A stretch of DNA of 64,000 nucleotides. Source: Escherichia phage MRostami-2023e. Positions 9,086-62,633 of the stretch are shown piece by piece. The notes under the pieces are model-generated. The model was not told the origin of the DNA, ran no database searches, and worked only from the letters and a program-made list of their open reading frames with translations. Positions within the stretch are counted from its first letter, which is position 1. Each line of letters begins with the position of its first letter. Both the position numbers and the translations under genes were made by a program. The stretch is taken from the sequence record OQ031495, one strand, 5' to 3'.

Positions 9086-9848
<763 letters not shown>

Positions 9849-9856
<8 letters not shown>

Positions 9857-10778
9857 NNNNNNNNNNNNNNNNNNNNNNNNNNNNNNNNNNNNNNNNNNNN
9901 NNNNNNNNNNNNNNNNNNNNNNNNNNNNNNNNNNNNNNNNNNNNNNNNNNNNNNGTAACACCGCCAGGAAGCATCATGCCTTGATGACGTGCTAAAATTT
10001 GGCCATTTAATTCTTTAGCTAAAGCTGTAGCATAGTCTTTAACCCAGCGGTTGTTATATGCGCCTTGTTTAGTTGCAGGATCTTCACCAACTCGACGTCC
10101 GACCAAATTATGGTCCGGATTATCATAACGTTCAGAAATAGACCATGAATCACGAGGACCTACTTGACCGTACCCTACTGTATTTCCTACCATCTTATGG
10201 GTCTCGATATAAGAGCGAACATACGATTCAACGATAATGACATCTTTCTGTCTAAAGTTACCCATTACTTTTAATTGCTCGTTTGCAGAGTTAAACCAAA
10301 AATCTGGAAGAGGAGCAATCATATCTTGAAGCATACCCATATAAGATACTAATTGAGAATAATACCCGAGGTCAGCGCCAAAAGCGTTCGGACCGTAGAA
10401 TTTACCACAATTACTACCCATACCACCTGAAACACCGGCCATTCCTAAAAGGAAATCAGTGAACCATGGATAAGTTGCATTACCATCCATTGAAGTAATA
10501 GAGCCAACGTTTGTTCTTATAATTCTTGTTACAGCAAATACGTTAGAACCACGCATATCAAATACGCCGTGACGGTATTTTTCTTCGTCATCAACAAAAA
10601 ATACATGGAAACCTTTATTCAACCCGTCAAAATGGTATTCGCCATAAAGTTCTAACGCTCGTGAAATACAATCATAAATTTGGTCTGTAGTTAATTCAAC
10701 ATTTACAATAGGAGCGCCTAAACGACGTAATATTACATCTTTTAATTCTTTAGGGTTTTGTGCATTATAACCTGACAT
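9849..10778 (-). CDS. 13: Neck protein gp13 (3' end inside N-masked run; end estimated)
   Basis: N-terminus [30 protein letters not shown]... matches T4 gp13 as recalled. Confidence 0.8.
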
Positions 10779-30109: not shown

Positions 30110-30397
30110 ATGAAAACATATCAAGAATTTATNNNNNNNNNNNNNNNNNNNNNNNNNNNNNNNNNNNNNNNNNNNNNNNNNNNNNNNNNNNNNNNNNNNN
30201 NNNNNNNNNNNNNNNNNNNNNNNNNNNNNNNNNNNNNNNNNNNNNNNNNNAAAGGTACTGTTTACCTAGGTGATGGGTGGTCTGCTAAAAAGGATGGTGC
30301 TACAATCGTTATCTCTCCTGCCGAAGAAACTGCGTTGTTTAAAGCTAAACACATTTCTGCAGCACATCTCAAGATTATTGCTAAAAATCTTTTGTAA
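30110..30397 (+). CDS. ipI: Internal protein I (capsid-targeted, injected; interior masked by N)
   Basis: Starts MKTYQEF (capsid-targeting sequence); C-terminal part KGTVYLGDGWSAKKDGATIVISPAEETALFKA... as T4 IPI from memory. Confidence 0.75.
   Translation: MKTYQEFXXXXXXXXXXXXXXXXXXXXXXXXXXXXXXXXXXXXXXXXKGTVYLGDGWSAKKDGATIVISPAEETALFKAKHISAAHLKIIAKNLL
30133..30250. other. N-masked run (118 nt) inside ipI
   Basis: run of n. Confidence 1.
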
Positions 30398-30457
30398 NNN
30401 NNNNNNNNNNNNNNNNNNNNNNNNNNNNNNNNNNNNNNNNNNNNNNNNNNNNNNNNN
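30398..30457. other. N-masked run (60 nt)
   Basis: run of n. Confidence 1.
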
Positions 30458-30467
30458 GGAGAATAAA

Positions 30468-30653
30468 ATGAAACGCGCTGAACTGATTCGTAATGTTGCT
30501 GTAGTAATTGCTTCAATGGCTTTTAGTTTTTCGATGTTTGTAGGATTCATTTGTGGACTACTGACAACAACTGAAAACTCTATCTCATTGGTAGTAGCAT
30601 TTCTAATCGGCTTAATCGCTATCGTTATGGATAAAATTGCAAAAGGTGAGTAA
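30468..30653 (+). CDS. Small hydrophobic membrane protein (61 aa)
   Basis: SD ggag then ATG; MKRAELIRNVAVVIASMAFSFSMFVGFICGLL... Confidence 0.6.
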   Translation: MKRAELIRNVAVVIASMAFSFSMFVGFICGLLTTTENSISLVVAFLIGLIAIVMDKIAKGE

Positions 30654-31016
30654 ATGAAATATCATGTATATGCAGATTTTGAAGCAAATCCTTCTAAAGA
30701 CCATGATTGTCGTTTGATACGCAGACCATTTGATTCAGCAGCTCAAGCCTGGGCTTGGATTAAAACTTGTACTCCTTCTTACACTTTCTTTGAAGTGGTA
30801 GACGATAACGGTGTTCTGCATCCAGAACCTACAGAAACTATTAATTTCCTTCTGTTTGCTGGTTACGACTGTTATCCTCTTGGTGGTATTGACGACCTTG
30901 TTGCTACAGGAAAAACTGTTGAGGCTCTTCGCGAAATTTATAAAAACGCAGAAGAAAATTTTGACTGGTATCATATTGTTGATGCTCATACCTTTGAAAT
31001 GGTGGAACATTCATGA
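30654..31016 (+). CDS. Hypothetical protein (120 aa)
   Basis: ORF track, ATGA-coupled to neighbours. Confidence 0.6.
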   Translation: MKYHVYADFEANPSKDHDCRLIRRPFDSAAQAWAWIKTCTPSYTFFEVVDDNGVLHPEPTETINFLLFAGYDCYPLGGIDDLVATGKTVEALREIYKNAEENFDWYHIVDAHTFEMVEHS

Positions 31017-31303
31017 TTCTTTATGCTAAGGTAAAATCCGTTGAGAATGGATATGAAAGCGACCGAGCTGCAGCTAAAGCACTAGTCGATTACTATGGTA
31101 TTTTGACTAACTTTGAAGTTGAAAAGGTTTACGTCGACCGTTCATCTTCACAGGTTAAATTACTTTGGGAAGACCGCAAATTTAATAGTGTGAACTTTGA
31201 TTTCTTTATTGAAACAGAAAAAGGTCCTCTTGAATATGATATTTTCAAGAATCCTTTGAAATTACGTTGCATTGAATATAATTACATTAATATGGTACGG
31301 TGA
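31013..31303 (+). CDS. Hypothetical protein (96 aa)
   Basis: ORF track. Confidence 0.55.
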   Translation: MILYAKVKSVENGYESDRAAAKALVDYYGILTNFEVEKVYVDRSSSQVKLLWEDRKFNSVNFDFFIETEKGPLEYDIFKNPLKLRCIEYNYINMVR

Positions 31304-31307
31304 GTAA

Positions 31308-31823
31308 ATGAATATTTGTTTAGGCAGTACAATTCCTAAGGGTTACGTAATTGATGTCACTACTTGGGAAAATGACGGCGACAACTATAAAACTAAAACG
31401 TTGTTTGGTGTAGAAGAGCATGAGCTCCAACAGTTTAAATATCTTTTGAAGAAATTTAAGAGCCGTCATTCCAGCACTAAAGCTGAACGTTACTGTGGTA
31501 ATACACTATTCAGTGATTGTTCGCTTTTAATCTATGAATACTTGGTTGAAGGATTGTTCTCAGACCAGCTTTATCCAGAATTCATTAAAAAGGTCTTTGA
31601 TATTGAAGTCGACCTTGGTAATAAATCTGAAGAAGACGAATCACGTGTATTTGACCTGTTCCGTGAGAATGGATATTTGGTATCAGAAGGTCTCACTGAT
31701 ATTCTTGGCCATGCTTCTGAATATTATGATTATGATTTCTTGCGTGTAGTTGAATGTGTTGAATTTGCTTATATTGAAGAAGAAATCGTTTTGCCAACTG
31801 TTAAAATGATTGATTTGCTTTAA
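31308..31823 (+). CDS. Hypothetical protein (171 aa)
   Basis: ORF track. Confidence 0.6.
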   Translation: MNICLGSTIPKGYVIDVTTWENDGDNYKTKTLFGVEEHELQQFKYLLKKFKSRHSSTKAERYCGNTLFSDCSLLIYEYLVEGLFSDQLYPEFIKKVFDIEVDLGNKSEEDESRVFDLFRENGYLVSEGLTDILGHASEYYDYDFLRVVECVEFAYIEEEIVLPTVKMIDLL

Positions 31824-31902
31824 GAATTATGTGTTATTATTAATTCATACCCTCTATTACCAAAGGTGCTCTAAAGTGCCTTTCATAATAGAAAGTTATT
31901 TA

Positions 31903-31977
31903 GGCCCTGTAGCTCAATGGGAGAGCTGTCAGCTCATAACTGATAGGTAGCTGGATCGAAACCAGCCAGGGTCACCA
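31903..31977 (+). tRNA. tRNA with anticodon CAU (Ile2-type or Met)
   Basis: Hand-folded cloverleaf: acceptor ggccctg/cagggtc, D stem gctc/gagc, anticodon loop cuCAUaa, T stem gctgg/ccagc, encoded CCA. Confidence 0.75.
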
Positions 31978-31980
31978 ATC

Positions 31981-32057
<77 letters not shown>

Positions 32058-32075
32058 ACTTCAAGTGAGGAAAAT

Positions 32076-32420
32076 ATGAAAGGTAATGTTTACTTAGTAG
32101 TTCATGATTTAACGTTTTATTTTAACGAACATGATACAGTTATTTCAGACCGATTGATTAATTTGTTATACCAACACGCAGATTACATCTATGTTCAAAA
32201 TGAATTCGGCCATTGGAAGTTCATTAAAAATCGTTCTGGGTTAACTAGTTTTGAATACTTTGATCGTAAAGACCTTTTAAACGAAATCCCATTGCAACAT
32301 CGGTTCCAGAAACGCGAATCATTATATTATTGCCGTCATATACCAAACGCCGAATGTGTTAATGAAGCGATTAATCTATGGAGACGGCGTCGAGAGCAAA
32401 TTGATGATATGCCAAAATAA
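32076..32420 (+). CDS. Hypothetical protein (114 aa)
   Basis: ATG with SD gaggaaaat just after tRNA-Arg; longer ORF-track start would overlap the tRNA. Confidence 0.6.
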   Translation: MKGNVYLVVHDLTFYFNEHDTVISDRLINLLYQHADYIYVQNEFGHWKFIKNRSGLTSFEYFDRKDLLNEIPLQHRFQKRESLYYCRHIPNAECVNEAINLWRRRREQIDDMPK

Positions 32421-32700
32421 GAAGCCGGGTCGCTACCGGTAAGTCGTCGGACTGATGTTCCCTGAGTAAGGACTGGTCTTAATAAATCTTTACGATTTGT
32501 TAATATCCCCTTACACCACAGCAGAAACGGCGCACCGAATTATCGATTCGAGGAAATATCTTTGCCGTAAGCCGAGTAGCGTTTTTGACGGAACGTTCGG
32601 ATATGGTCGAGATATGGCCTTTTAAAAATATTGAGTAGCGTCAACTACTTAATAACCGGGTTCAAATCCCGGCGTTTCGTACAAACACTTGCCTTAGCAG
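32421..32700 (+). ncRNA. Non-coding, relatively GC-rich region with tRNA-like T-arm; candidate stable RNA(s) (compare T4 rnaC/rnaD)
   Basis: No ORF >=60 aa on either strand; ccggg-ttcaaat-cccgg at 32656-32672; could not fold a canonical cloverleaf by hand. Confidence 0.3.
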
Positions 32701-32722
32701 GTGGAACCCCGACAAGGTATAT

Positions 32723-32752
32723 AGCCCCTTCCGAAAGGTTGGGGCTTTTTTG
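32723..32752 (+). terminator. Rho-independent terminator
   Basis: agcccc...ggggct stem followed by tttttt. Confidence 0.7.
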
Positions 32753-32760
32753 TATAAATA
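32753..32760 (+). promoter_or_regulatory. Late promoter TATAAATA upstream of the 32796 gene
   Basis: exact tataaata 36 nt upstream of ATG. Confidence 0.55.
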
Positions 32761-32795
32761 TAGTAAACAATAAACCCACTTTCTAAGGACCATCA

Positions 32796-33428
32796 ATGTA
32801 TACTTTTAATGAATTTTTAGCCGAAACGGAAGTAATCACCGAAGCCGGCGTACGTATGACAAAAGAGAAATGGCAAGCTGCTTACGATGCTATTTCTGGT
32901 ACAAAAACTAGTACAGAGTTTTTCAAAAACGTTCAAGCCATGTACGGTATCGACACTTCCAGCCAAAAAGAATATTACAGAGCTTCTAAAGCATTCAAAG
33001 ATATTGTTAGTGGTGGTGTTTCTGCTAAATCGGGTTCGCCTAAAGTAAAACCTGCTCCTACCATTCCTAAACCTGCGACCCCTAAAGCAATAGCAAAACC
33101 TGAGCCTAAGCCTAAGCCTGAAGTAAAAGCAACTCCTAAAGCTCCTGCTCTTAAGTTTGATACTTCTAGCCTGGAAAAAAAATATAAACAACTATCTTCG
33201 CTTGTTCGCGATATTGAATCCGATACATCTTCACTCGTTCGTGAATTCAATAGTCTTCGTAATGGCCAACATATCAACAACCTTGATACCCCAGACCTTT
33301 ATCGTCTTTATTTGACTATCGAAGGTTTGAAGTATACTCAACCACTTCATGATGAGATTAAAGAAAAACTTCGTCAGGCAGGTCGTTTGGCTGCTGACGC
33401 TGCTCAGTATGCAAAAACTCGTAAGTAA
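32796..33428 (+). CDS. Lys/Pro-rich protein with CTS-like N-terminus (MYTFNEFLAE); candidate virion internal protein
   Basis: 210 aa; N-terminus resembles MKTYQEFIAE; PK-rich linker; own late promoter and terminator. Confidence 0.65.
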   Translation: MYTFNEFLAETEVITEAGVRMTKEKWQAAYDAISGTKTSTEFFKNVQAMYGIDTSSQKEYYRASKAFKDIVSGGVSAKSGSPKVKPAPTIPKPATPKAIAKPEPKPKPEVKATPKAPALKFDTSSLEKKYKQLSSLVRDIESDTSSLVREFNSLRNGQHINNLDTPDLYRLYLTIEGLKYTQPLHDEIKEKLRQAGRLAADAAQYAKTRK

Positions 33429-33433
33429 AGAAT

Positions 33434-33452
33434 GGGGACTTCGGTCCCCTTT
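33434..33452 (+). terminator. Terminator-like hairpin (ggggac-ttcg-gtcccc, short U-run)
   Basis: GC stem-tetraloop directly after stop codon. Confidence 0.5.
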
Positions 33453-33480
33453 AGGGGGTCTATAACTTACTGAAAAAGTT

Positions 33481-33509
33481 GTTTACTTCTTCCCTAGATG
33501 TGTTACTAT
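33481..33509 (+). promoter_or_regulatory. Early promoter (gtttac N17 tactat)
   Basis: -35/-10 match to T4 early consensus; RBS catgaggagaatattATG shared with 38765 copy. Confidence 0.55.
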
Positions 33510-33537
33510 AGACCCATCAAAACATGAGGAGAATATT

Positions 33538-33798
33538 ATGAGTCTTTACACTGAACTGAATAAAAAATCTGAAGAATCTGCTGAAACTATTTTTAAAAAC
33601 GTGCAAAAGCGTATTTTAGAAAAGATGTATAACACTGCAGCTAAAGGTGAAAAATCTTGCCGGTTCCCGATGAGGTGTTCTTCTGATTTATGCGCAAATA
33701 CTATTGAATGGCTGGAAAGTGAAGGTCTTACGGTAGAGAAAAACCCGGCGATTTCTATTGACAGTGAATCATATATTAGTATTTCTTGGGATAAATCA
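33538..33798 (+). CDS. Hypothetical protein (3' end masked)
   Basis: ORF track; runs into N-masked run. Confidence 0.55.
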
Positions 33799-33827
33799 NN
33801 NNNNNNNNNNNNNNNNNNNNNNNNNNN
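33799..33827. other. N-masked run (29 nt)
   Basis: run of n. Confidence 1.
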
Positions 33828-37490: not shown

Positions 37491-38447
37491 ATGATGTTAG
37501 TTATTGGTTCTCGTGCACTTCACTATCACGGTCTTATTGATTCTAGCGCTATCAAAAATAGTGATTGGGACTTTATTGCGGACCAATGTTCTTGGAATGC
37601 ATTCAAAAATCAAATGATGGGTGTATATGTCCACCAAGATAACCCTGATGTCCAAGTTTTCAAATGCTTCCATAATGGACGCGAAACTCATTTTGAAGCA
37701 TATATTGTTCCGGCAATCACTAACGTTCGCGAACTAGTCGGTGAACTCACTCCTGAAGATTTCACGTCTTCTTATGACCTTTTAAAATACGCCAAGAAAA
37801 ATTTGACTAAAGACCGTTTGAACGGGTTTTACTGGGCAACTCCCGAGATATGTCTTGCAATTAAGATGTCTCATCGTTTCAAGAAAAATAATCCATTCTT
37901 TTTAAAGACTATGAACCATATTCAGTATCTTCGTGGTAAAGGTGTTACACTGAACGATGAACTTACTGAAATTATGCTGAAACGCCAGAAAGAAACCTTG
38001 AACTATGCTCACCCAGTTCTTGACACTTCTAAAAGTGCGTTCTTTAAAGATGACATCTATACATATGACCATGATACTATTCACGAAGCCATTGCGTTAA
38101 CAGGCCGCCCAGCGTATACATTTTATATGAAAGACGGTTCTGAAGTCATGACCTCACGTGAGAAGTTCGAATCGTTACCAGAAATGGTCAAATTGGCCGG
38201 TGTATATGAAGAATCATGTGTACTAGCATTAGAACGTTCTCAGATTCCTAATGACTTTAAAATTAACCCTGAAGCCAGTTTCATGATGGCATTAGAAAAA
38301 GTCTGCACAAGCATCACCTCCGGTTGGTTCCGTGAATACGCATACGAGAACTACAGCAAAGTTGTAAGTATGTATCATAAGCTCGGCAAAAATGATTACA
38401 TTAAACGGTTTAAAGAAAATTTTCATATGGTGAAACCTTTCAAATAA
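37491..38447 (+). CDS. Hypothetical protein (318 aa) with N-terminal G-S...D-x-D signature suggestive of a pol-beta-type nucleotidyltransferase fold
   Basis: VIGSRALHYHGLIDSSAIKNSDWDF; tentative motif-level call only. Confidence 0.5.
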   Translation: MMLVIGSRALHYHGLIDSSAIKNSDWDFIADQCSWNAFKNQMMGVYVHQDNPDVQVFKCFHNGRETHFEAYIVPAITNVRELVGELTPEDFTSSYDLLKYAKKNLTKDRLNGFYWATPEICLAIKMSHRFKKNNPFFLKTMNHIQYLRGKGVTLNDELTEIMLKRQKETLNYAHPVLDTSKSAFFKDDIYTYDHDTIHEAIALTGRPAYTFYMKDGSEVMTSREKFESLPEMVKLAGVYEESCVLALERSQIPNDFKINPEASFMMALEKVCTSITSGWFREYAYENYSKVVSMYHKLGKNDYIKRFKENFHMVKPFK

Positions 38448-38466
38448 CTTCACAAAACTGTTTACA

Positions 38467-38728
38467 NNNNNNNNNNNNNNNNNNNNNNNNNNNNNNNNNN
38501 NNNNNNNNNNNNNNNNNNNNNNNNNNNNNNNNNNNNNNNNNNNNNNNNNNNNNNNNNNNNNNNNNNNNNNNNNNNNNNNNNNNNNNNNNNNNNNNNNNNN
38601 NNNNNNNNNNNNNNNNNNNNNNNNNNNNNNNNNNNNNNNNNNNNNNNNNNNNNNNNNNNNNNNNNNNNNNNNNNNNNNNNNNNNNNNNNNNNNNNNNNNN
38701 NNNNNNNNNNNNNNNNNNNNNNNNNNNN
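38467..38728. other. N-masked run (262 nt), flanked on both sides by gtttaca promoter elements
   Basis: run of n. Confidence 1.
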
Positions 38729-38766
38729 GTTTACACAATTATAGGACTATGTTATAGTAGTCCTAT
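38729..38766 (+). promoter_or_regulatory. Early promoter cassette with perfect 9-bp inverted repeat ataggacta/tagtcctat around the -10
   Basis: gtttac ... gttatagt; RBS catgaggagaatattATG. Confidence 0.6.
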
Positions 38767-38786
38767 TAAAACATGAGGAGAATATT

Positions 38787-39092
38787 ATGAAATTAACAGA
38801 AACCAATCGAATTGGTCTTTTAACAATACTTGCATCACCTTTTTACGCAACTCTTTCTGTTGCGGTATTACAAAAGGCTTACAGTATGGATGGTGTTCCT
38901 GGTTGTATATTTTTATCACCATTTTTGCTATTCGTTGGAGCTTTGTTATTATATGCCACGTCTGGTTTCGACAATAATGTCTGGGTCAATTATAAACGTA
39001 AATTGTCTGAAGAAGAACACGCAGAAGCTCGTAAAAAAGCTATTGAATCTACCAATCTAGAAAATTTCATTAAAGAATGTCGAGGAAAATAA
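38787..39092 (+). CDS. Two-TM membrane protein, C-terminal FIKECR motif (family member 4)
   Basis: ends ...NLENFIKECRGK. Confidence 0.65.
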   Translation: MKLTETNRIGLLTILASPFYATLSVAVLQKAYSMDGVPGCIFLSPFLLFVGALLLYATSGFDNNVWVNYKRKLSEEEHAEARKKAIESTNLENFIKECRGK

Positions 39093-39093
39093 T

Positions 39094-39780
39094 ATGAATA
39101 GTTCTAAAGTGTTTAATAGTCAAGCTCGTGCAGTAGGTGGTTTTGCTCATGCGATTAAAAACGACCAGATTAAAAACGAGCCTATGTTCTTCAACTGTAG
39201 TTTAGAATTTGCTTATAATAACGGCGGTCCTATTACTCGCAGCTTCATCATGAACTTGCCAGATGATTGGAACACCGACCAGGTTGTATTTGATTCACGA
39301 GTCCACATGCTGATGCCTGGTTGGTACCCTGCTATCCCAGGTTATCACCATGACGATGTACCACGCCCGGATATTCCGGTTGGTCAACACTTTATTACTG
39401 CAGGACAACCTGACTATGACAATCCTCGCTATTTGTCTGAACATATTCTTGGTCTTGTTAACGCTGATGTGTGTCCTACTCATTTTGCAACAGGAACTGC
39501 AGAGTTCAGTCAGATTCCTGATGGCGAACTTATCTATCGTCAGTGGCACAAAGAAGTCCTCGAAAAAATTGAAAAAGGCGAACTAGAGAAATGGGAAGCT
39601 CCAGATCGTACTCTTCTTCAGTTTGATTGGCAAACATGGCACACTGGTTCTCGTGCAATTAGTAACGGATGGCGTTGGTTCGGACGTGTATCTCGTAATA
39701 CAGACCGAGTTAAAAAGATTACCAATGAAATTCGTGTCAATGCCCAAGTTTATCTGGAATTCCCTATGGAAGGCTGGTAA
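39094..39780 (+). CDS. Hypothetical protein (228 aa)
   Basis: ORF track. Confidence 0.6.
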   Translation: MNSSKVFNSQARAVGGFAHAIKNDQIKNEPMFFNCSLEFAYNNGGPITRSFIMNLPDDWNTDQVVFDSRVHMLMPGWYPAIPGYHHDDVPRPDIPVGQHFITAGQPDYDNPRYLSEHILGLVNADVCPTHFATGTAEFSQIPDGELIYRQWHKEVLEKIEKGELEKWEAPDRTLLQFDWQTWHTGSRAISNGWRWFGRVSRNTDRVKKITNEIRVNAQVYLEFPMEGW

Positions 39781-41753: not shown

Positions 41754-41811
41754 TGTTTACTTCCTCCAAGGGTTTTGATACTATACATTCATCAACTACT
41801 TGGAGGAAATT

Positions 41812-42348
41812 ATGACTCGTATCAATTTAACACTTGTTTCTGAACTGACCGACCAACATCTTATGGCTGAGTATCGTGAATTACCACGCGTATTTGGTGC
41901 AGTCCGTAAACATGTTCAAAACGGTAAACGTGTAAAGGATTTTAAAATCTCTCCAACATTTATCTTAGGCACAGGTCACGTAACATTCTTTTACGACAAA
42001 CTTGAATTTTTACGTTTAAGACAAATCGAGCTAATCGCTGAATGTTTGAAACGTGGTTTCAAAATCAAGGACACGACAGTCCAGGATATTTCCGACATCC
42101 CTGCCGAATTTCGTAATAATTATGTCCCGTCCGAAGCGTCCATTGCGATAAGTCAAGCACGCTTAGATGAAAAAATTGCTCAACGTCCGACTTGGTACAA
42201 ATACTATGGTAAATCAATTTACCAAGGAAAAATGAAAATGTATCAAGAATTTATCATTGAAGCAGATGCCAAAGGTCCTAAAGTAGATGTTGACGATATT
42301 GGATACGATTTTAACAACTTCGGAATTATTTCTGGCGGTAAAGCTTAA
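41812..42348 (+). CDS. denV: Endonuclease V (pyrimidine-dimer DNA glycosylase) with C-terminal in-frame extension into a CTS-bearing mini-ORF
   Basis: First ~136 aa match T4 DenV as recalled; ORF lacks a stop at the expected position and continues ...[17 protein letters not shown]... to 42348. Confidence 0.85.
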
Positions 42349-42351
42349 ATT

Positions 42352-42381
42352 GTTTACGCTTAAGTATTAATATGGTATAAT
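42352..42381 (+). promoter_or_regulatory. Early promoter (gtttac N18 tataat)
   Basis: seen in sequence. Confidence 0.6.
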
Positions 42382-42411
42382 TACTCTATCAAAACAAACA
42401 AGGAAACAAAA

Positions 42412-42729
42412 ATGAAAACATATAAAGAATTTATCGCCGAATCTGCTGCAGGACAACGTGTAGAAGGTGGTTATATCTGGATTGAACAAGTTGAGCCGCC
42501 AAGTCGCACTTCTACAGGTAAATGGAAAATCACTGTTGATGGTCCTGGTGGTAAACGTAGGACTCTTAAAGAAATTAATGGGTACTATGAAGAAGCTCTT
42601 TCTGACGCGGGTACTTATATGATGCAAATCATGATTAAAAACCCAGAAAATCGTTTTGCGGCTAGAGTTTTCCGCCGTATTGGAAATAAGCTTTATGATG
42701 CATATTCTAAAAACTTCCCTAAAGAATAA
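42412..42729 (+). CDS. Internal-protein-like gene with capsid-targeting sequence (MKTYKEFIAE)
   Basis: 105 aa; CTS N-terminus; own promoter. Confidence 0.65.
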   Translation: MKTYKEFIAESAAGQRVEGGYIWIEQVEPPSRTSTGKWKITVDGPGGKRRTLKEINGYYEEALSDAGTYMMQIMIKNPENRFAARVFRRIGNKLYDAYSKNFPKE

Positions 42730-42745
42730 AAATTAAAGGAAACAT

Positions 42746-42777
42746 ATGAAAACATATCAAGAATTTATTACTGAAGC
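42746..42777 (+). CDS. Start of another CTS gene (MKTYQEFITE), remainder N-masked
   Basis: 10 readable codons then N-masked run. Confidence 0.5.
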
Positions 42778-43217
42778 NNNNNNNNNNNNNNNNNNNNNNN
42801 NNNNNNNNNNNNNNNNNNNNNNNNNNNNNNNNNNNNNNNNNNNNNNNNNNNNNNNNNNNNNNNNNNNNNNNNNNNNNNNNNNNNNNNNNNNNNNNNNNNN
42901 NNNNNNNNNNNNNNNNNNNNNNNNNNNNNNNNNNNNNNNNNNNNNNNNNNNNNNNNNNNNNNNNNNNNNNNNNNNNNNNNNNNNNNNNNNNNNNNNNNNN
43001 NNNNNNNNNNNNNNNNNNNNNNNNNNNNNNNNNNNNNNNNNNNNNNNNNNNNNNNNNNNNNNNNNNNNNNNNNNNNNNNNNNNNNNNNNNNNNNNNNNNN
43101 NNNNNNNNNNNNNNNNNNNNNNNNNNNNNNNNNNNNNNNNNNNNNNNNNNNNNNNNNNNNNNNNNNNNNNNNNNNNNNNNNNNNNNNNNNNNNNNNNNNN
43201 NNNNNNNNNNNNNNNNN
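42778..43217. other. N-masked run (440 nt)
   Basis: run of n. Confidence 1.
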
Positions 43218-44232: not shown

Positions 44233-44595
44233 ATGAAAGCATATCAAATTCTTGAAGGCACACACAAAGGCACTATTTATTTTGAAGACGGTACTCAAGC
44301 CCGGATTATTGTCTCTAAGACTTTTAAAGAAGACGCTATTGTAGACCCGGAAATTTTCTACGGTTTGCATGCCCGTGAAATTGAAATTGAACATCAACCT
44401 AAAGTTAAAATTGAAGGTGGTCAACATCTGAACGTTAACGTTCTGCGTCGTGAAACTCTGGAAGATGCAGTTAAGCATCCAGAAAAATATCCGCAGTTGA
44501 CCATCCGTGTATCCGGTTATGCAGTTCGCTTTAACTCTCTGACTCCGGAACAGCAGCGCGACGTTATCGCTCGTACCTTTACTGAGAGTCTATAA
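44233..44595 (+). CDS. Autonomous glycyl-radical cofactor (GrcA/YfiD-like; T4 Y06I-type)
   Basis: C-terminal half ...[60 protein letters not shown] matches E. coli GrcA as recalled, including RVSGY glycyl-radical motif. Confidence 0.9.
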
Positions 44596-45080: not shown

Positions 45081-45282
45081 NNNNNNNNNNNNNNNNNNNN
45101 NNNNNNNNNNNNNNNNNNNNNNNNNNNNNNNNNNNNNNNNNNNNNNNNNNNNNNNNNNNNNNNNNNNNNNNNNNNNNNNNNNNNNNNNNNNNNNNNNNNN
45201 NNNNNNNNNNNNNNNNNNNNNNNNNNNNNNNNNNNNNNNNNNNNNNNNNNNNNNNNNNNNNNNNNNNNNNNNNNNNNNNNNN
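45081..45282. other. N-masked run (202 nt); an ATG at 45075 opens a masked gene
   Basis: run of n. Confidence 1.
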
Positions 45283-47154: not shown

Positions 47155-47416
47155 NNNNNNNNNNNNNNNNNNNNNNNNNNNNNNNNNNNNNNNNNNNNNN
47201 NNNNNNNNNNNNNNNNNNNNNNNNNNNNNNNNNNNNNNNNNNNNNNNNNNNNNNNNNNNNNNNNNNNNNNNNNNNNNNNNNNNNNNNNNNNNNNNNNNNN
47301 NNNNNNNNNNNNNNNNNNNNNNNNNNNNNNNNNNNNNNNNNNNNNNNNNNNNNNNNNNNNNNNNNNNNNNNNNNNNNNNNNNNNNNNNNNNNNNNNNNNN
47401 NNNNNNNNNNNNNNNN
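47155..47416. other. N-masked run (262 nt)
   Basis: run of n. Confidence 1.
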
Positions 47417-47560
47417 ATGGACTGTTTTTTTTACTTTATGTAACGATGAAATGATATGTGATTTTGATTATTGGTGTTATTGCTATTGATACAATAAAGG
47501 ATGTACAAATCATACAGGTGAAGGTTTCTATTCCGGGTTTCAACCGTATCCAGACTTTGT

Positions 47561-47568
47561 NNNNNNNN
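47561..47568. other. N-masked run (8 nt)
   Basis: run of n. Confidence 1.
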
Positions 47569-47578
47569 GTGAACCTAA

Positions 47579-47761
47579 ATGAAATTAACTAAAGAAGAGA
47601 AAGCTAAACTGTTCGAACTTATCCATGACCTATTGGACGAGCAAGCAGCCACCAATGCGTACGATGAATATGCTCCTTTAACAGATGAAGAATATCAAGC
47701 ATTGATGGAATCATTTGACAGGAAAGAACAAGAACTCATTGACTACGTGAATTCACTATAA
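47579..47761 (+). CDS. Hypothetical acidic protein (60 aa)
   Basis: ORF track. Confidence 0.5.
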   Translation: MKLTKEEKAKLFELIHDLLDEQAATNAYDEYAPLTDEEYQALMESFDRKEQELIDYVNSL

Positions 47762-49288: not shown

Positions 49289-49628
49289 NNNNNNNNNNNN
49301 NNNNNNNNNNNNNNNNNNNNNNNNNNNNNNNNNNNNNNNNNNNNNNNNNNNNNNNNNNNNNNNNNNNNNNNNNNNNNNNNNNNNNNNNNNNNNNNNNNNN
49401 NNNNNNNNNNNNNNNNNNNNNNNNNNNNNNNNNNNNNNNNNNNNNNNNNNNNNNNNNNNNNNNNNNNNNNNNNNNNNNNNNNNNNNNNNNNNNNNNNNNN
49501 NNNNNNNNNNNNNNNNNNNNNNNNNNNNNNNNNNNNNNNNNNNNNNNNNNNNNNNNNNNNNNNNNNNNNNNNNNNNNNNNNNNNNNNNNNNNNNNNNNNN
49601 NNNNNNNNNNNNNNNNNNNNNNNNNNNN
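49289..49628. other. N-masked run (340 nt)
   Basis: run of n. Confidence 1.
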
Positions 49629-55549: not shown

Positions 55550-56485
55550 ATGGCTTTTATTACACGTAAAGAACTTATCAAAGAATTTACCTCGAACGCA
55601 TATACTCCAGGACCTAATCCTATCCGTATGCCTGTAAAGACTCCTGAAGAGATTGAGGAAGTCTGTTCATATTATGGGATTACTTCTCGTAAGTTTACTC
55701 AATTTGAATGCGTTACTAACACACCCGTTAAAGAGTTCATTAAAAATGGTGAGTTCAGCCGTTTATTAGCCAAACAGAAACTTCGTAATTTTTGTATTGG
55801 CGGTGAAGGACAATATTTCGCTAAGCAGTTCCGGAATAACCTTAACAATCTGATGGCCATTGCTTCTCGTATTCGTCCTCAAGCAATTAACATGAAACAT
55901 TTGAAATATACTTACGATAAGTTGGAAATCATGGTTATCAGTGAGAATGAGTTCACTCTTACGTATAAACCTAAGAATGATAACGTTGCTCGTGTATTTC
56001 ACCAAGCGTTGGAAGTTTTAGGTGATAATATCCACCAGATTAAAGCAATTTATTCACGTGAGCTTAATATTATCAACCCCATCAAGAATAAGGGTCATAT
56101 TGCTATCCAGGCTCGTGTATCTATTGGTAAAAAGGTTCCTGCGCCATGGTGGCACAAAGACTCTGAATACTATCAAAATCTTAAAAAGGAAAATGCATTG
56201 TTTGAAGCATCGCTTACTGGAACCCCAATTGAACAGGCCGAAGTCCTAAGTGCTTATTCTACTTCTNNNNNNNNNNNNNNNNNNNNNNNNNNNAAACTAA
56301 AAGTTTCTAATGACCTTCTTCCGGCCGAAGATTACCATTACAATCAAATCAAGGCCACTATGGACCAACTGTCTGTTGAACTTGACAAAGCACAAGCTAA
56401 GCTTCGTGATGCTCAAAGTGTTGTAACGAATCTCCAGTTGCAGTATTCTAAACTTTTTAACGCAATGAATGCATTAAAATCATAA
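55550..56485 (+). CDS. Hypothetical protein with C-terminal coiled coil (311 aa; 27 nt masked)
   Basis: ORF track. Confidence 0.6.
   Translation: MAFITRKELIKEFTSNAYTPGPNPIRMPVKTPEEIEEVCSYYGITSRKFTQFECVTNTPVKEFIKNGEFSRLLAKQKLRNFCIGGEGQYFAKQFRNNLNNLMAIASRIRPQAINMKHLKYTYDKLEIMVISENEFTLTYKPKNDNVARVFHQALEVLGDNIHQIKAIYSRELNIINPIKNKGHIAIQARVSIGKKVPAPWWHKDSEYYQNLKKENALFEASLTGTPIEQAEVLSAYSTSXXXXXXXXXKLKVSNDLLPAEDYHYNQIKATMDQLSVELDKAQAKLRDAQSVVTNLQLQYSKLFNAMNALKS
56267..56293. other. N-masked run (27 nt)
   Basis: run of n. Confidence 1.
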
Positions 56486-59539: not shown

Positions 59540-59724
59540 NNNNNNNNNNNNNNNNNNNNNNNNNNNNNNNNNNNNNNNNNNNNNNNNNNNNNNNNNNNNN
59601 NNNNNNNNNNNNNNNNNNNNNNNNNNNNNNNNNNNNNNNNNNNNNNNNNNNNNNNNNNNNNNNNNNNNNNNNNNNNNNNNNNNNNNNNNNNNNNNNNNNN
59701 NNNNNNNNNNNNNNNNNNNNNNNN
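59540..59724. other. N-masked run (185 nt) flanked by identical 9-mers ttaagttaa
   Basis: run of n. Confidence 1.
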
Positions 59725-59768: not shown

Positions 59769-60242
59769 ATGTTATTATCAGGCGCAAAATATAAAGAAGA
59801 AAAACAAAAATTTTATGATGCACAGAACGGTAAGTGTCCTATTTGCCACCGTGAATTAGACCCTGATGTTCAAGGTAACCATCTTGACCACGACCATGAA
59901 TTAAACGGGCCAAAAGCCGGTAGAGTTCGTGGATTACTCTGTAATCTGTGCAACGCAGCAGAAGGTCAAATGAAGCATAAGTTCAACCGTTCTGGTCTTA
60001 AAGGCCGTGATGTCGACTACCTAGAATGGCTTGAAGCTCTTCTCGCTTATTTGAAACAAGATTATTCTGATAATAATATCCATCCTAATTTTGTTCCAGA
60101 CAAAACTAAAGAGTTCTCAAGACTAGGTAAAGAGGAAATGATGACCGAGATGCTTCAAAGAGGATTTGAATATAATGAATCAGATACTAAAACACAATTA
60201 ATAGCTTCATTCAAAAAGCAGCTTAGAAAGAGTTTAAAATGA
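59769..60242 (+). CDS. 49: Endonuclease VII (Holliday junction resolvase) gp49
   Basis: 157 aa; MLLSGAKYKEEKQKFYDAQNGKCPICHRELDPDVQGNHLDHDHELNGPKAG... matches T4 EndoVII as recalled. Confidence 0.92.
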   Translation: MLLSGAKYKEEKQKFYDAQNGKCPICHRELDPDVQGNHLDHDHELNGPKAGRVRGLLCNLCNAAEGQMKHKFNRSGLKGRDVDYLEWLEALLAYLKQDYSDNNIHPNFVPDKTKEFSRLGKEEMMTEMLQRGFEYNESDTKTQLIASFKKQLRKSLK

Positions 60243-62056
60243 AAATTGAAAAAGAAATTGAAGGATTAATTCATAAAACTAATAAAGACCTTTTAAACGA
60301 GAATGCTAATAAAGATTCTCGTGTTTTTCCAACTCAACGGGACCTTATGGCTGGTATTGTGTCTAAGCACATTGCCAAAAATATGGTCCCGTCTTTTATT
60401 ATGAATGCGCATGAAAGCGGAATCATTCACATGCATGATATTGATTATTCTCCTGCTCTTCCATTTACTAATTGCTGTTTAGTCGATTTAAAGGGGATGC
60501 TTGAGAATGGATTTAAATTAGGCAATGCTCAAATTGAAACGCCTAAATCTATTGGCGTTGCTACTGCAATTATGGCACAAATTACCGCACAAGTTGCTTC
60601 ACACCAATATGGCGGAACTACATTTGCGAATGTCGATAAAGTTCTTTCTCCTTATGTTAAACGCACATACGCTAAACATATTGAGGACGCAGAAAAATGG
60701 CAAATCGCTGATGCGTTGAATTATGCCCAATCTAAAACAGAAAAAGACGTATACGATGCATTCCAAGCTTATGAATATGAAGTAAATACTCTCTTTAGTT
60801 CAAACGGACAGACTCCTTTTGTAACAATTACATTTGGTACAGGAACCGACTGGACTGAACGAATGATTCAGAAAGCAATTCTTAAAAACCGCATTAAAGG
60901 CCTTGGTCGTGATGGAATAACTCCTATTTTCCCTAAGCTTGTTATGTTCGTTGAAGAAGGTGTTAATCTTTATAAAGACGATCCGAACTATGATATTAAG
61001 CAGCTTGCTTTAGAATGTGCAAGCAAAAGAATGTATCCTGACATCATTTCGGCTAAGAACAATAAAGCTATCACCGGCTCATCTATTCCTGTTTCTCCAA
61101 TGGGTTGCCGTAGTTTCTTGAGCGTATGGAAAGATTCAACTGGCAATGAAATTCTTGATGGACGCAATAATCTTGGCGTTGTAACACTGAATCTTCCTCG
61201 TATTGCGTTAGATTCTTATATTGGAACACAATTCAATGAACAGAAATTTGCCGAATTGTTCAATGAACGAATGGACCTGTGTTTTGAAGCTTTGATGTGT
61301 AGAATTAGTTCCTTAAAAGGAGTTAAAGCGACTGTTGCTCCTATTCTTTACCAAGAAGGTGCATTTGGGGTTCGTCTTAAACCTGACGACGATATAATTG
61401 AGTTATTTAAAAACGGTAGAAGTTCAGTGTCTTTAGGATACATCGGTATTCATGAATTGAATATTCTTGTCGGCCGTGATATTGGACAAGAAATTTTAAC
61501 TAAAATGAATGCTCATCTTAAACAGTGGACTGAAAGAACCGGTTTTGCTTTTAGCTTGTATTCTACTCCTGCTGAAAACCTGTGCTATCGCTTCTGTAAA
61601 CTTGATACTGAAAAATATGGAAGTGTAAAAGATGTTACTGATAAAGGCTGGTACACTAACAGTTTCCATGTTTCAGTAGAAGAAAATATTACTCCGTTTG
61701 AAAAGATTTATCGCGAAGCCCCATATCATTTCATTTCGNNNNNNNNNNNNNNNNNNNNNNNNNNNNNNNNNNNNNNNNNNNNNNNNNNNNNNNNNNNNNN
61801 NNNNNNNNNNNNNNNNNNNNNNNNNNNNNNNNNNNNNNNNNNNNNNNNNNNNNNNNNNNNNNNNNNNNNNNNNNNNNNNNNNNNNNNNNNNNNNNNNNNN
61901 NNNNNNNNNNNATTTGTTTGTTCTATGTGTGGAGAAACTGATCCTAAAAAGATGAACACAATAAGAAGAACGTGTGGTTATCTTGGAAACCCGAACGAAC
62001 GCGGATTTAATCTAGGCAAAAATAAAGAAATCATGCATAGGGTTAAACACCAATGA
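60239..62056 (+). CDS. nrdD: Anaerobic ribonucleotide reductase NrdD (uninterrupted; 173 nt masked)
   Basis: 605 aa; C-terminal glycyl-radical motif RRTCGYLGNP. Confidence 0.9.
   Translation: MKIEKEIEGLIHKTNKDLLNENANKDSRVFPTQRDLMAGIVSKHIAKNMVPSFIMNAHESGIIHMHDIDYSPALPFTNCCLVDLKGMLENGFKLGNAQIETPKSIGVATAIMAQITAQVASHQYGGTTFANVDKVLSPYVKRTYAKHIEDAEKWQIADALNYAQSKTEKDVYDAFQAYEYEVNTLFSSNGQTPFVTITFGTGTDWTERMIQKAILKNRIKGLGRDGITPIFPKLVMFVEEGVNLYKDDPNYDIKQLALECASKRMYPDIISAKNNKAITGSSIPVSPMGCRSFLSVWKDSTGNEILDGRNNLGVVTLNLPRIALDSYIGTQFNEQKFAELFNERMDLCFEALMCRISSLKGVKATVAPILYQEGAFGVRLKPDDDIIELFKNGRSSVSLGYIGIHELNILVGRDIGQEILTKMNAHLKQWTERTGFAFSLYSTPAENLCYRFCKLDTEKYGSVKDVTDKGWYTNSFHVSVEENITPFEKIYREAPYHFISXXXXXXXXXXXXXXXXXXXXXXXXXXXXXXXXXXXXXXXXXXXXXXXXXXXXXXXXXXFVCSMCGETDPKKMNTIRRTCGYLGNPNERGFNLGKNKEIMHRVKHQ
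61739..61911. other. N-masked run (173 nt) inside nrdD
   Basis: run of n. Confidence 1.
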
Positions 62057-62520
62057 ATTATGATAGAATTTATCCTTGTGATTTTGTGAATGGCCCTGGT
62101 TGCAGGGTCGTTCTTTTCGTTACAGGTTGTTTGCATAAATGTGAAGGGTGTTATAATAAATCAACATGGAATGCTAGAAATGGTATTCCATTCACTGGTG
62201 AAACACTAAAACAATTAATTGAAATTTTGAATAATGATTAAATAGAAGGATTAACTATAACTGGAGGAGACCCTCTCTATCCTGATAACCGAGATGTTAT
62301 TCATTGCATTGTTCAAACTATTAAAAATCTTTATCCCAATAAAAGCATTTGGTTGTGGACAGGATATAAGTTTGAAGATATTAAACAACTAGAAATGCTT
62401 AAATATGTTGATGTTATTATTGATGGGAAGTATGAGAAAAATCTTCCGACCAAAAAGATATGGCGAGGATCAGATAATCAGCGACTTTGGTCAAATACCG
62501 ATGGGGTGTGGAAACATGAT
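62053..62520 (+). pseudogene. nrdG: Anaerobic RNR activase NrdG interrupted by in-frame TAA at 62239-62241
   Basis: N-terminal 62 aa with CxxxCxxC-type cluster motif (CLHKCEGC) then TAA; downstream same-frame sequence IEGLTITGGDPLYP...RGSDNQRLWSNTDGVWKHD continues the NrdG homology. Confidence 0.75.
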
Positions 62521-62633
62521 TAAATTGAATTATATTATGGATACTATAAATGATATGATTTTTCGTTTTGGTCCAGAATTTTATTCCCAATATAGTTTAG
62601 TGCTTATCAATGCTTAGTTAATTAAGGGTAAAT

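Follow-up and report, generated by a model that had tools for sequence, protein, structure and literature searches.

Does the Mosigvirus Escherichia phage MRostami-2023e (OQ031495) still encode a working activase for its anaerobic ribonucleotide reductase (RNR), or has the gene been broken by a single base change? The question arose from an ochre codon within nrdG, for which the initial annotation had offered three readings: a recent pseudogene, a sequencing error, or a stop codon that is suppressed. T4 NrdG, with which the gene was compared, is the product of gene 55.9 and, as a radical-SAM enzyme, activates NrdD, the class III ribonucleotide reductase of the phage. The T4 protein has 156 aa (PMC4493059), and the class III enzyme is accessory in T4-type phages (PMC2993671). 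In many phages nrdD is found without nrdG, as in an Aeromonas phage cluster with the gene order nrdBAD (PMC3653736).

The analysis was performed on a window of 64 kb, the whole stretch of DNA available here, from a genome of about 169 kb. The phage is a T4-like Mosigvirus (Straboviridae, Tevenvirinae) with 96-98% identity over tens of kilobases to other Mosigvirus phages, among them JK36, mar005P1, SA79RD, JS09 and ECO26.1 3-1. When the coding sequences of JK36 were mapped to the window, homologues were found for about 96 of them, beginning with the prohead core genes on the left and ending with gene 55.6 on the right.

The nrdD-nrdG locus

The catalytic subunit gene nrdD occupied positions 60239-62056 (+ strand) and comprised 605 codons, which matched JK36 without gaps and without stop codons. 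A run of N at 61739-61911 masked 173 nt (58 codons) of the gene, and its integrity was seen over the readable 547 codons; the masked stretch preserved the frame, and the total length of nrdD equalled that of JK36. The C-terminal glycyl-radical motif RRTCGYLG was visible. The start codon of nrdG overlapped the TGA of nrdD in the sequence ATGA (62053-62056), and the same nrdD-nrdG order was found in JK36, mar009P5 and SA79RD. A second phage protein of the glycyl-radical type, which would likewise need an activase, was encoded by an intact vs.6 homologue at 44233-44595 (+ strand), for which relatives carry the annotation 'pyruvate formate-lyase' or 'autonomous glycyl radical cofactor GrcA'.

The nrdG reading frame extended over 62053-62523 (+ strand) and contained 156 codons and a terminator. 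It was interrupted in frame by the ochre codon TAA at 62239-62241, which is codon 63. Its translation read MNYDRIYPCDFVNGPGCRVVLFVTGCLHKCEGCYNK...LNND up to the stop; beyond it, without a change of frame, followed IEGLTITGGDPLYPDNRD...GVWKHD, the second part beginning with IEGLTITGGDP and ending with VWKHD. The open frame beyond the stop had been described correctly by the initial annotation, which had placed its end at 62518-62520, 3 nt too early; these bases are GAT, the last sense codon (Asp156), and the terminator TAA lies at 62521-62523. The frame was thus divided into an ORF that is actually encoded, 62053-62241 (+ strand, 62 aa and TAA), and an untranslated remnant of codons 64-156 at 62242-62520 (+ strand).

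Profile searches identified both parts. The two halves matched successive stretches of the Pfam family Fer4_12 (positions 1-50 and 53-136 of 137), and when codon 63 was read as Tyr the complete frame scored 199.1 bits with TIGR02491, the NCBIfam equivalog for NrdG (cutoff 126.1 bits), 163.6 bits with Fer4_12 and 34.8 bits with Radical_SAM. As the halves fell on adjacent parts of one profile and the joined frame with Tyr reached 199.1 bits, they represent one interrupted gene and not two chance ORFs. Judged from these sequence matches, the DNA of the locus is descended from nrdG. The in-frame translation and the profile matches bore out the identification of nrdG beside an nrdD that is intact where readable, as well as the TAA at 62239-62241. 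The 471 nt of nrdG aligned with those of relatives without gaps, so a split of the gene by an intron, an intein or a homing-endonuclease insertion was ruled out.

Distribution of the TAA allele

Codon 63 was TAT (Tyr63) in all of the approximately 22 close relatives aligned and TAA in none. In this gapless alignment, the T to A change at 62241 sufficed to produce the stop, as had been proposed from the single sequence. The neighbouring 105-aa and NrdC proteins were searched for by exact identity in NCBI, ENA and Logan assemblies, and nine further close relatives were added in this way; nrdG was called at 156 aa in these, save for two short contigs that ended inside the gene, and T was present at 62241 in every contig covering codon 63.

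An earlier megablast with a 71-nt query could not prove the absence of TAA, as the mismatch could fall elsewhere in the query. Queries of 31 nt with the site at the centre, for which no match is possible unless the central base agrees, were used instead against a phage collection of 50,697 records, and these yielded 449 records with TAT and 0 with TAA, in agreement with the comparison of relatives. Exact 20-mers in IMG/VR gave 9 copies of TAT and 0 of TAA. A TAA allele shared with metagenome or genome collections was rejected, for the only four matches were chance 20-21-mers from unrelated sequence. Across phage records, IMG/VR, metagenome and genome scans, the premature stop was derived and private to the MRostami-2023e sequence. 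This privacy is also what a sequencing, assembly or consensus error would produce, in which case the real phage would carry TAT and a normal nrdG: the single-base substitution was present in no other record, and the exact 62-aa product was found on no record searched.

Two other candidates for a disrupted nrdG were encountered. Phage F31 (OP870147) was rejected, since its DNA encodes an intact 156-aa protein and the annotated start alone differs. In the T4-type IMG/VR genome L031 (IMGVR_UViG_2974754850_000001, 1501-1967), a 1-nt frameshift, real or erroneous, was observed in nrdG around codon 85.

Predicted consequence of the truncation

The 62-aa product covered positions 1-60 of the 154 positions of TIGR02491 and scored 80 bits, below the cutoff of 126.1. 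The CX3CX2C motif of the [4Fe-4S] cluster (C26-X3-C30-X2-C33, sequence CLHKCEGC) was located upstream of the stop and aligned with the cluster motif of pyruvate formate-lyase activating enzyme (PFL-AE), the nearest solved homologue (3c8f, residues 8-75 aligned). The GGD motif (codons 71-73) lay downstream, in the remnant, together with the rest of the partial barrel, and is equivalent to GGE in PFL-AE. The GGE motif of PFL-AE binds SAM, and radical-SAM activases require a contiguous barrel.

The ochre codon would thus end translation after 62 residues, leaving a peptide that would keep the three cluster cysteines and would be devoid of GGD and of about 60% of the radical-SAM fold. Given how glycyl-radical activases are known to work, such a peptide should neither cleave SAM nor activate NrdD, and no glycyl radical would be placed on the phage reductase. 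As written, the locus is best described as a putative nrdG pseudogene or mutant allele and not as a functional member of the NrdG family.

The complete CX3CX2C motif in the N-terminal peptide is the one feature in favour of a gene that works in two pieces, or of a 62-aa product with an independent role, such as that of an Fe-S mini-protein or regulator. Downstream of the stop, however, no in-frame ATG, GTG or TTG occurred from 62242 until a TTG at 62353, so that the SAM-binding GGD motif cannot be expressed from a second start. The arrangement was seen in no other genome examined, and the need for a contiguous barrel also speaks against it. This explanation was regarded as extremely improbable.

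Search for suppression and recoding

The third reading, in which a phage or host suppressor tRNA, or programmed or leaky readthrough, carries translation past the ochre codon to a functional full-length NrdG, is compatible with a downstream frame that is fully open and without indels. It is also compatible with the nature of residue 63, which is variable, being His in some T4-like phages, with no Tyr there in E. coli NrdG. As this residue is not universally conserved, an ochre suppressor could probably place Tyr, Gln or Lys there without harm to the protein.

The remaining evidence pointed in the opposite direction. ARAGORN and Rfam searches of the 64-kb window of the ~169-kb genome detected no tRNA with an anticodon reading UAA; the sole tRNAs of the window were tRNA-Met(CAT) and tRNA-Arg(TCT) in the T4-type tRNA region (31903-32057, + strand), the same pair as in mar009P5 and SA79RD. 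TAA is the usual terminator of this phage, ending 44 of the 65 mapped genes (68%), 13 of them in the context TAAA that is also found at the internal stop. The RNA 3' of the stop folded no better than shuffled sequence (z = 0.17), and both the +1 and the -1 frame reached stop codons within a few codons. Programmed readthrough or recoding was rejected, because the stop is absent from every relative, the opposite of what is expected for programmed recoding, and because a downstream stimulatory structure is lacking. Among the three options first put forward, the pseudogene was best supported and suppression was disfavoured; we consider functional readthrough very unlikely.

No sigma-70-like promoter was found at the mutation. 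By eye, 2 of the 8 positions of the T4 late consensus TATAAATA were mismatched in ATTAAATA. The tRNA region itself (30650-33800) was mosaic compared with JK36 (L004, 32700-35300), the identity there falling to 83-92%. In JK36, 10 tRNAs are annotated (Arg, Asn, Tyr, Met, Thr, Ser, Pro, Gly, Leu and Gln), while only Met and Arg tRNAs were present in this region of the window, mar009P5 and SA79RD.

Sequence quality of the window

A poor consensus sequence would be expected to leave traces in other genes. Among the approximately 96 JK36 homologues, nrdG alone contained an internal stop where the alignment was reliable, and uncompensated frameshifts were absent from the JK36-mapped genes of the window. 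One more gene was flagged, whose match of 73% identity beside a run of N was not interpretable. With about 96 genes free of any other internal stop or uncompensated frameshift, the consensus looks accurate and general sequencing sloppiness is unlikely.

The window contained thirteen runs of N with a total of 2257 nt, presumably masks, at 9804-9954, 30133-30250, 30398-30457, 33799-33827, 38467-38728, 42778-43217, 45081-45282, 47155-47416, 47561-47568, 49289-49628, 56267-56293, 59540-59724 and 61739-61911. Besides nrdG, another accessory gene had its reading frame altered in the window alone: denV (endonuclease V, 41812-42348), whose stop is TAA in 5 of 5 relatives and CAA in the window through a private T>C change; the resulting ORF (41800-42348, + strand) has 182 aa instead of 137 aa and continues in frame into the start of a small downstream Ip-like gene.

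Private substitutions and selection on nrdG

Private substitutions were defined as bases seen in the window alone in a comparison with five relatives over 33.6 kb. In total 338 were counted, and in the mapped genes, nrdG included, 182 were synonymous and 68 non-synonymous, a synonymous excess which indicates normal purifying selection across these genes. In nrdD the numbers were 23 and 6.

In nrdG the pattern was different. None of its private changes was synonymous, and six non-synonymous nucleotides were found in four codons, compared to 182 synonymous and 62 non-synonymous changes elsewhere in the window (Fisher p = 3.4e-4 when nucleotides are counted and 4.7e-3 when codons are). Upstream of the stop were located E53K (62209, + strand, G>A, GAA>AAA) and C58I (62224-62225, + strand, TG>AT), the latter also written C/R58I as the ancestral codon is TGT or CGT and the new one ATT. 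These were followed by Y63* itself (62239-62241, + strand, TAT>TAA) and, downstream, by the private codon change L136I (62458-62460, + strand, CTG>ATA). None of the six derived bases occurred in the nine further relatives at the positions that those covered, and among 13 aligned relatives only the third-position A at 62460 recurred, in at least one of them. All six changes were towards A or T and four were transversions, numbers too few to interpret (218 transitions and 114 transversions in the rest of the window).

These results suggested, on the evidence of the sequence comparison, that nrdG has been under relaxed purifying selection relative to its neighbouring genes, a signal of small numbers that consists of 4 codons, two of them with double changes. 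Three private replacements together with the absence of any private synonymous change point to a gene freed from selection, that is, to a young pseudogene. E53K, C58I and L136I lie at sites that are variable among T4-like NrdGs, and they may predate the nonsense change and have arisen while the gene was still working.

The same pattern bears on the possibility of a consensus error. The TAA is accompanied by five more private changes in nrdG, which an isolated error does not explain, and a burst of six errors limited to one dispensable gene is improbable in itself. Elsewhere in the window the private changes showed the 3:1 synonymous excess that is characteristic of real evolution, and about 96 other genes were free of internal stops and uncompensated frameshifts. 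An error at 62241 was accordingly judged unlikely, if clearly less so than readthrough, and a genuine nonsense mutation remained the favoured explanation.

The origin of the clustered changes was also considered. Templating by a quasi-palindrome or by short gene conversion was rejected, as no donor carried more than one of the derived bases. Through the T>A change, the 10 nt at 62234-62243, ATGATTAAAT, have become an exact direct repeat of the natural end of nrdG at 62516-62525 (...CATGATTAAAT). The copies of this repeat, 282 nt apart, are at chance level (E about 2.6) and are a possible misalignment template. Dense private substitutions were also observed in other parts of the window, at about 37500-39100, 42275-42776 and 47417-47600, for example 64 per kb at 38-39 kb, with identities to relatives of 73-92%; such patches were probably acquired by recombination with lineages that have not been sampled.

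Discussion

Our analysis indicated that the ochre codon in nrdG of MRostami-2023e is probably a genuine, lineage-specific nonsense mutation that inactivated the gene, in other words that nrdG is a young pseudogene. The proposed course of events is simple: the mutated gene would have been free of purifying selection along the terminal branch of this phage, and its loss would have been tolerated because the class III RNR is an accessory function, needed, if at all, under anoxia, for which the host NrdG might substitute. That the activity is gone, that selection on nrdG has relaxed and that the phage tolerates this are our inferences from what the sequence shows. The event is most likely an ordinary inactivating mutation of a kind already known, and not a new mechanism.

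In its general organization the gene is like T4 NrdG, with 156 codons, a position directly downstream of nrdD, and the CX3CX2C and GGD motifs, and its read-through translation was 94-96% identical to the closest NrdG homologues in IMG/VR. It differs from T4 NrdG by the TAA at codon 63, with a 62-aa product below the family cutoff, and additionally by E53K, C58I and L136I. The genome L031 (IMGVR_UViG_2974754850) offers a parallel, since its accessory nrdG, likewise beside an nrdD gene, carries a disrupting point lesion. Its 1-nt frameshift, however, resides in a T4-type allele of about 72% DNA identity, which makes it an independent event.

Classical T4 nonsense mutants, of the amber or ochre type, affect essential genes and are propagated on suppressor hosts or rescued by phage psu tRNAs. 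The nrdG allele resembles these conditional-lethal mutants in being a single-base nonsense codon in a gene of T-even type. Unlike them, it affects a dispensable gene in a window without a suppressor tRNA.

The state of nrdD deserves attention. If the whole system were dead, an nrdD without decay would be unexpected, unless the host NrdG activates the phage enzyme or recombination has brought in the nrdD allele. NrdG of E. coli K-12 shares 47% identity with the phage NrdG, and the two NrdD proteins share 59%, and with these identities complementation of phage NrdD by the host activase is conceivable. In the literature searched, nothing spoke directly for or against activation of T4 NrdD by the host NrdG. 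On present sequence, MRostami-2023e would resemble the phages with nrdD only (PMC3653736) in having an intact phage nrdD and no functional phage activase. Those phages lack nrdG altogether, whereas here the whole gene remains with one nonsense codon, and the nonsense-bearing nrdG may represent an early stage of gene loss, if it is loss at all. The more specific scenario, in which the phage is giving up nrdG, retains nrdD under purifying selection and relies on the NrdG of its E. coli host, as an intermediate towards an 'nrdD-only' state, is tentative and was given a low probability.

For annotation, the locus should be labelled as an nrdG pseudogene or nonsense allele, and neither as two hypothetical ORFs nor as a functional activase; beyond correct annotation the finding matters little. 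If the mutation is real, MRostami-2023e would be a natural nrdG-null phage that retains nrdD. As such it could be used to test the cross-activation of a phage class III reductase by host NrdG, and to gauge what share the phage anaerobic RNR has in fitness in the anoxic gut.
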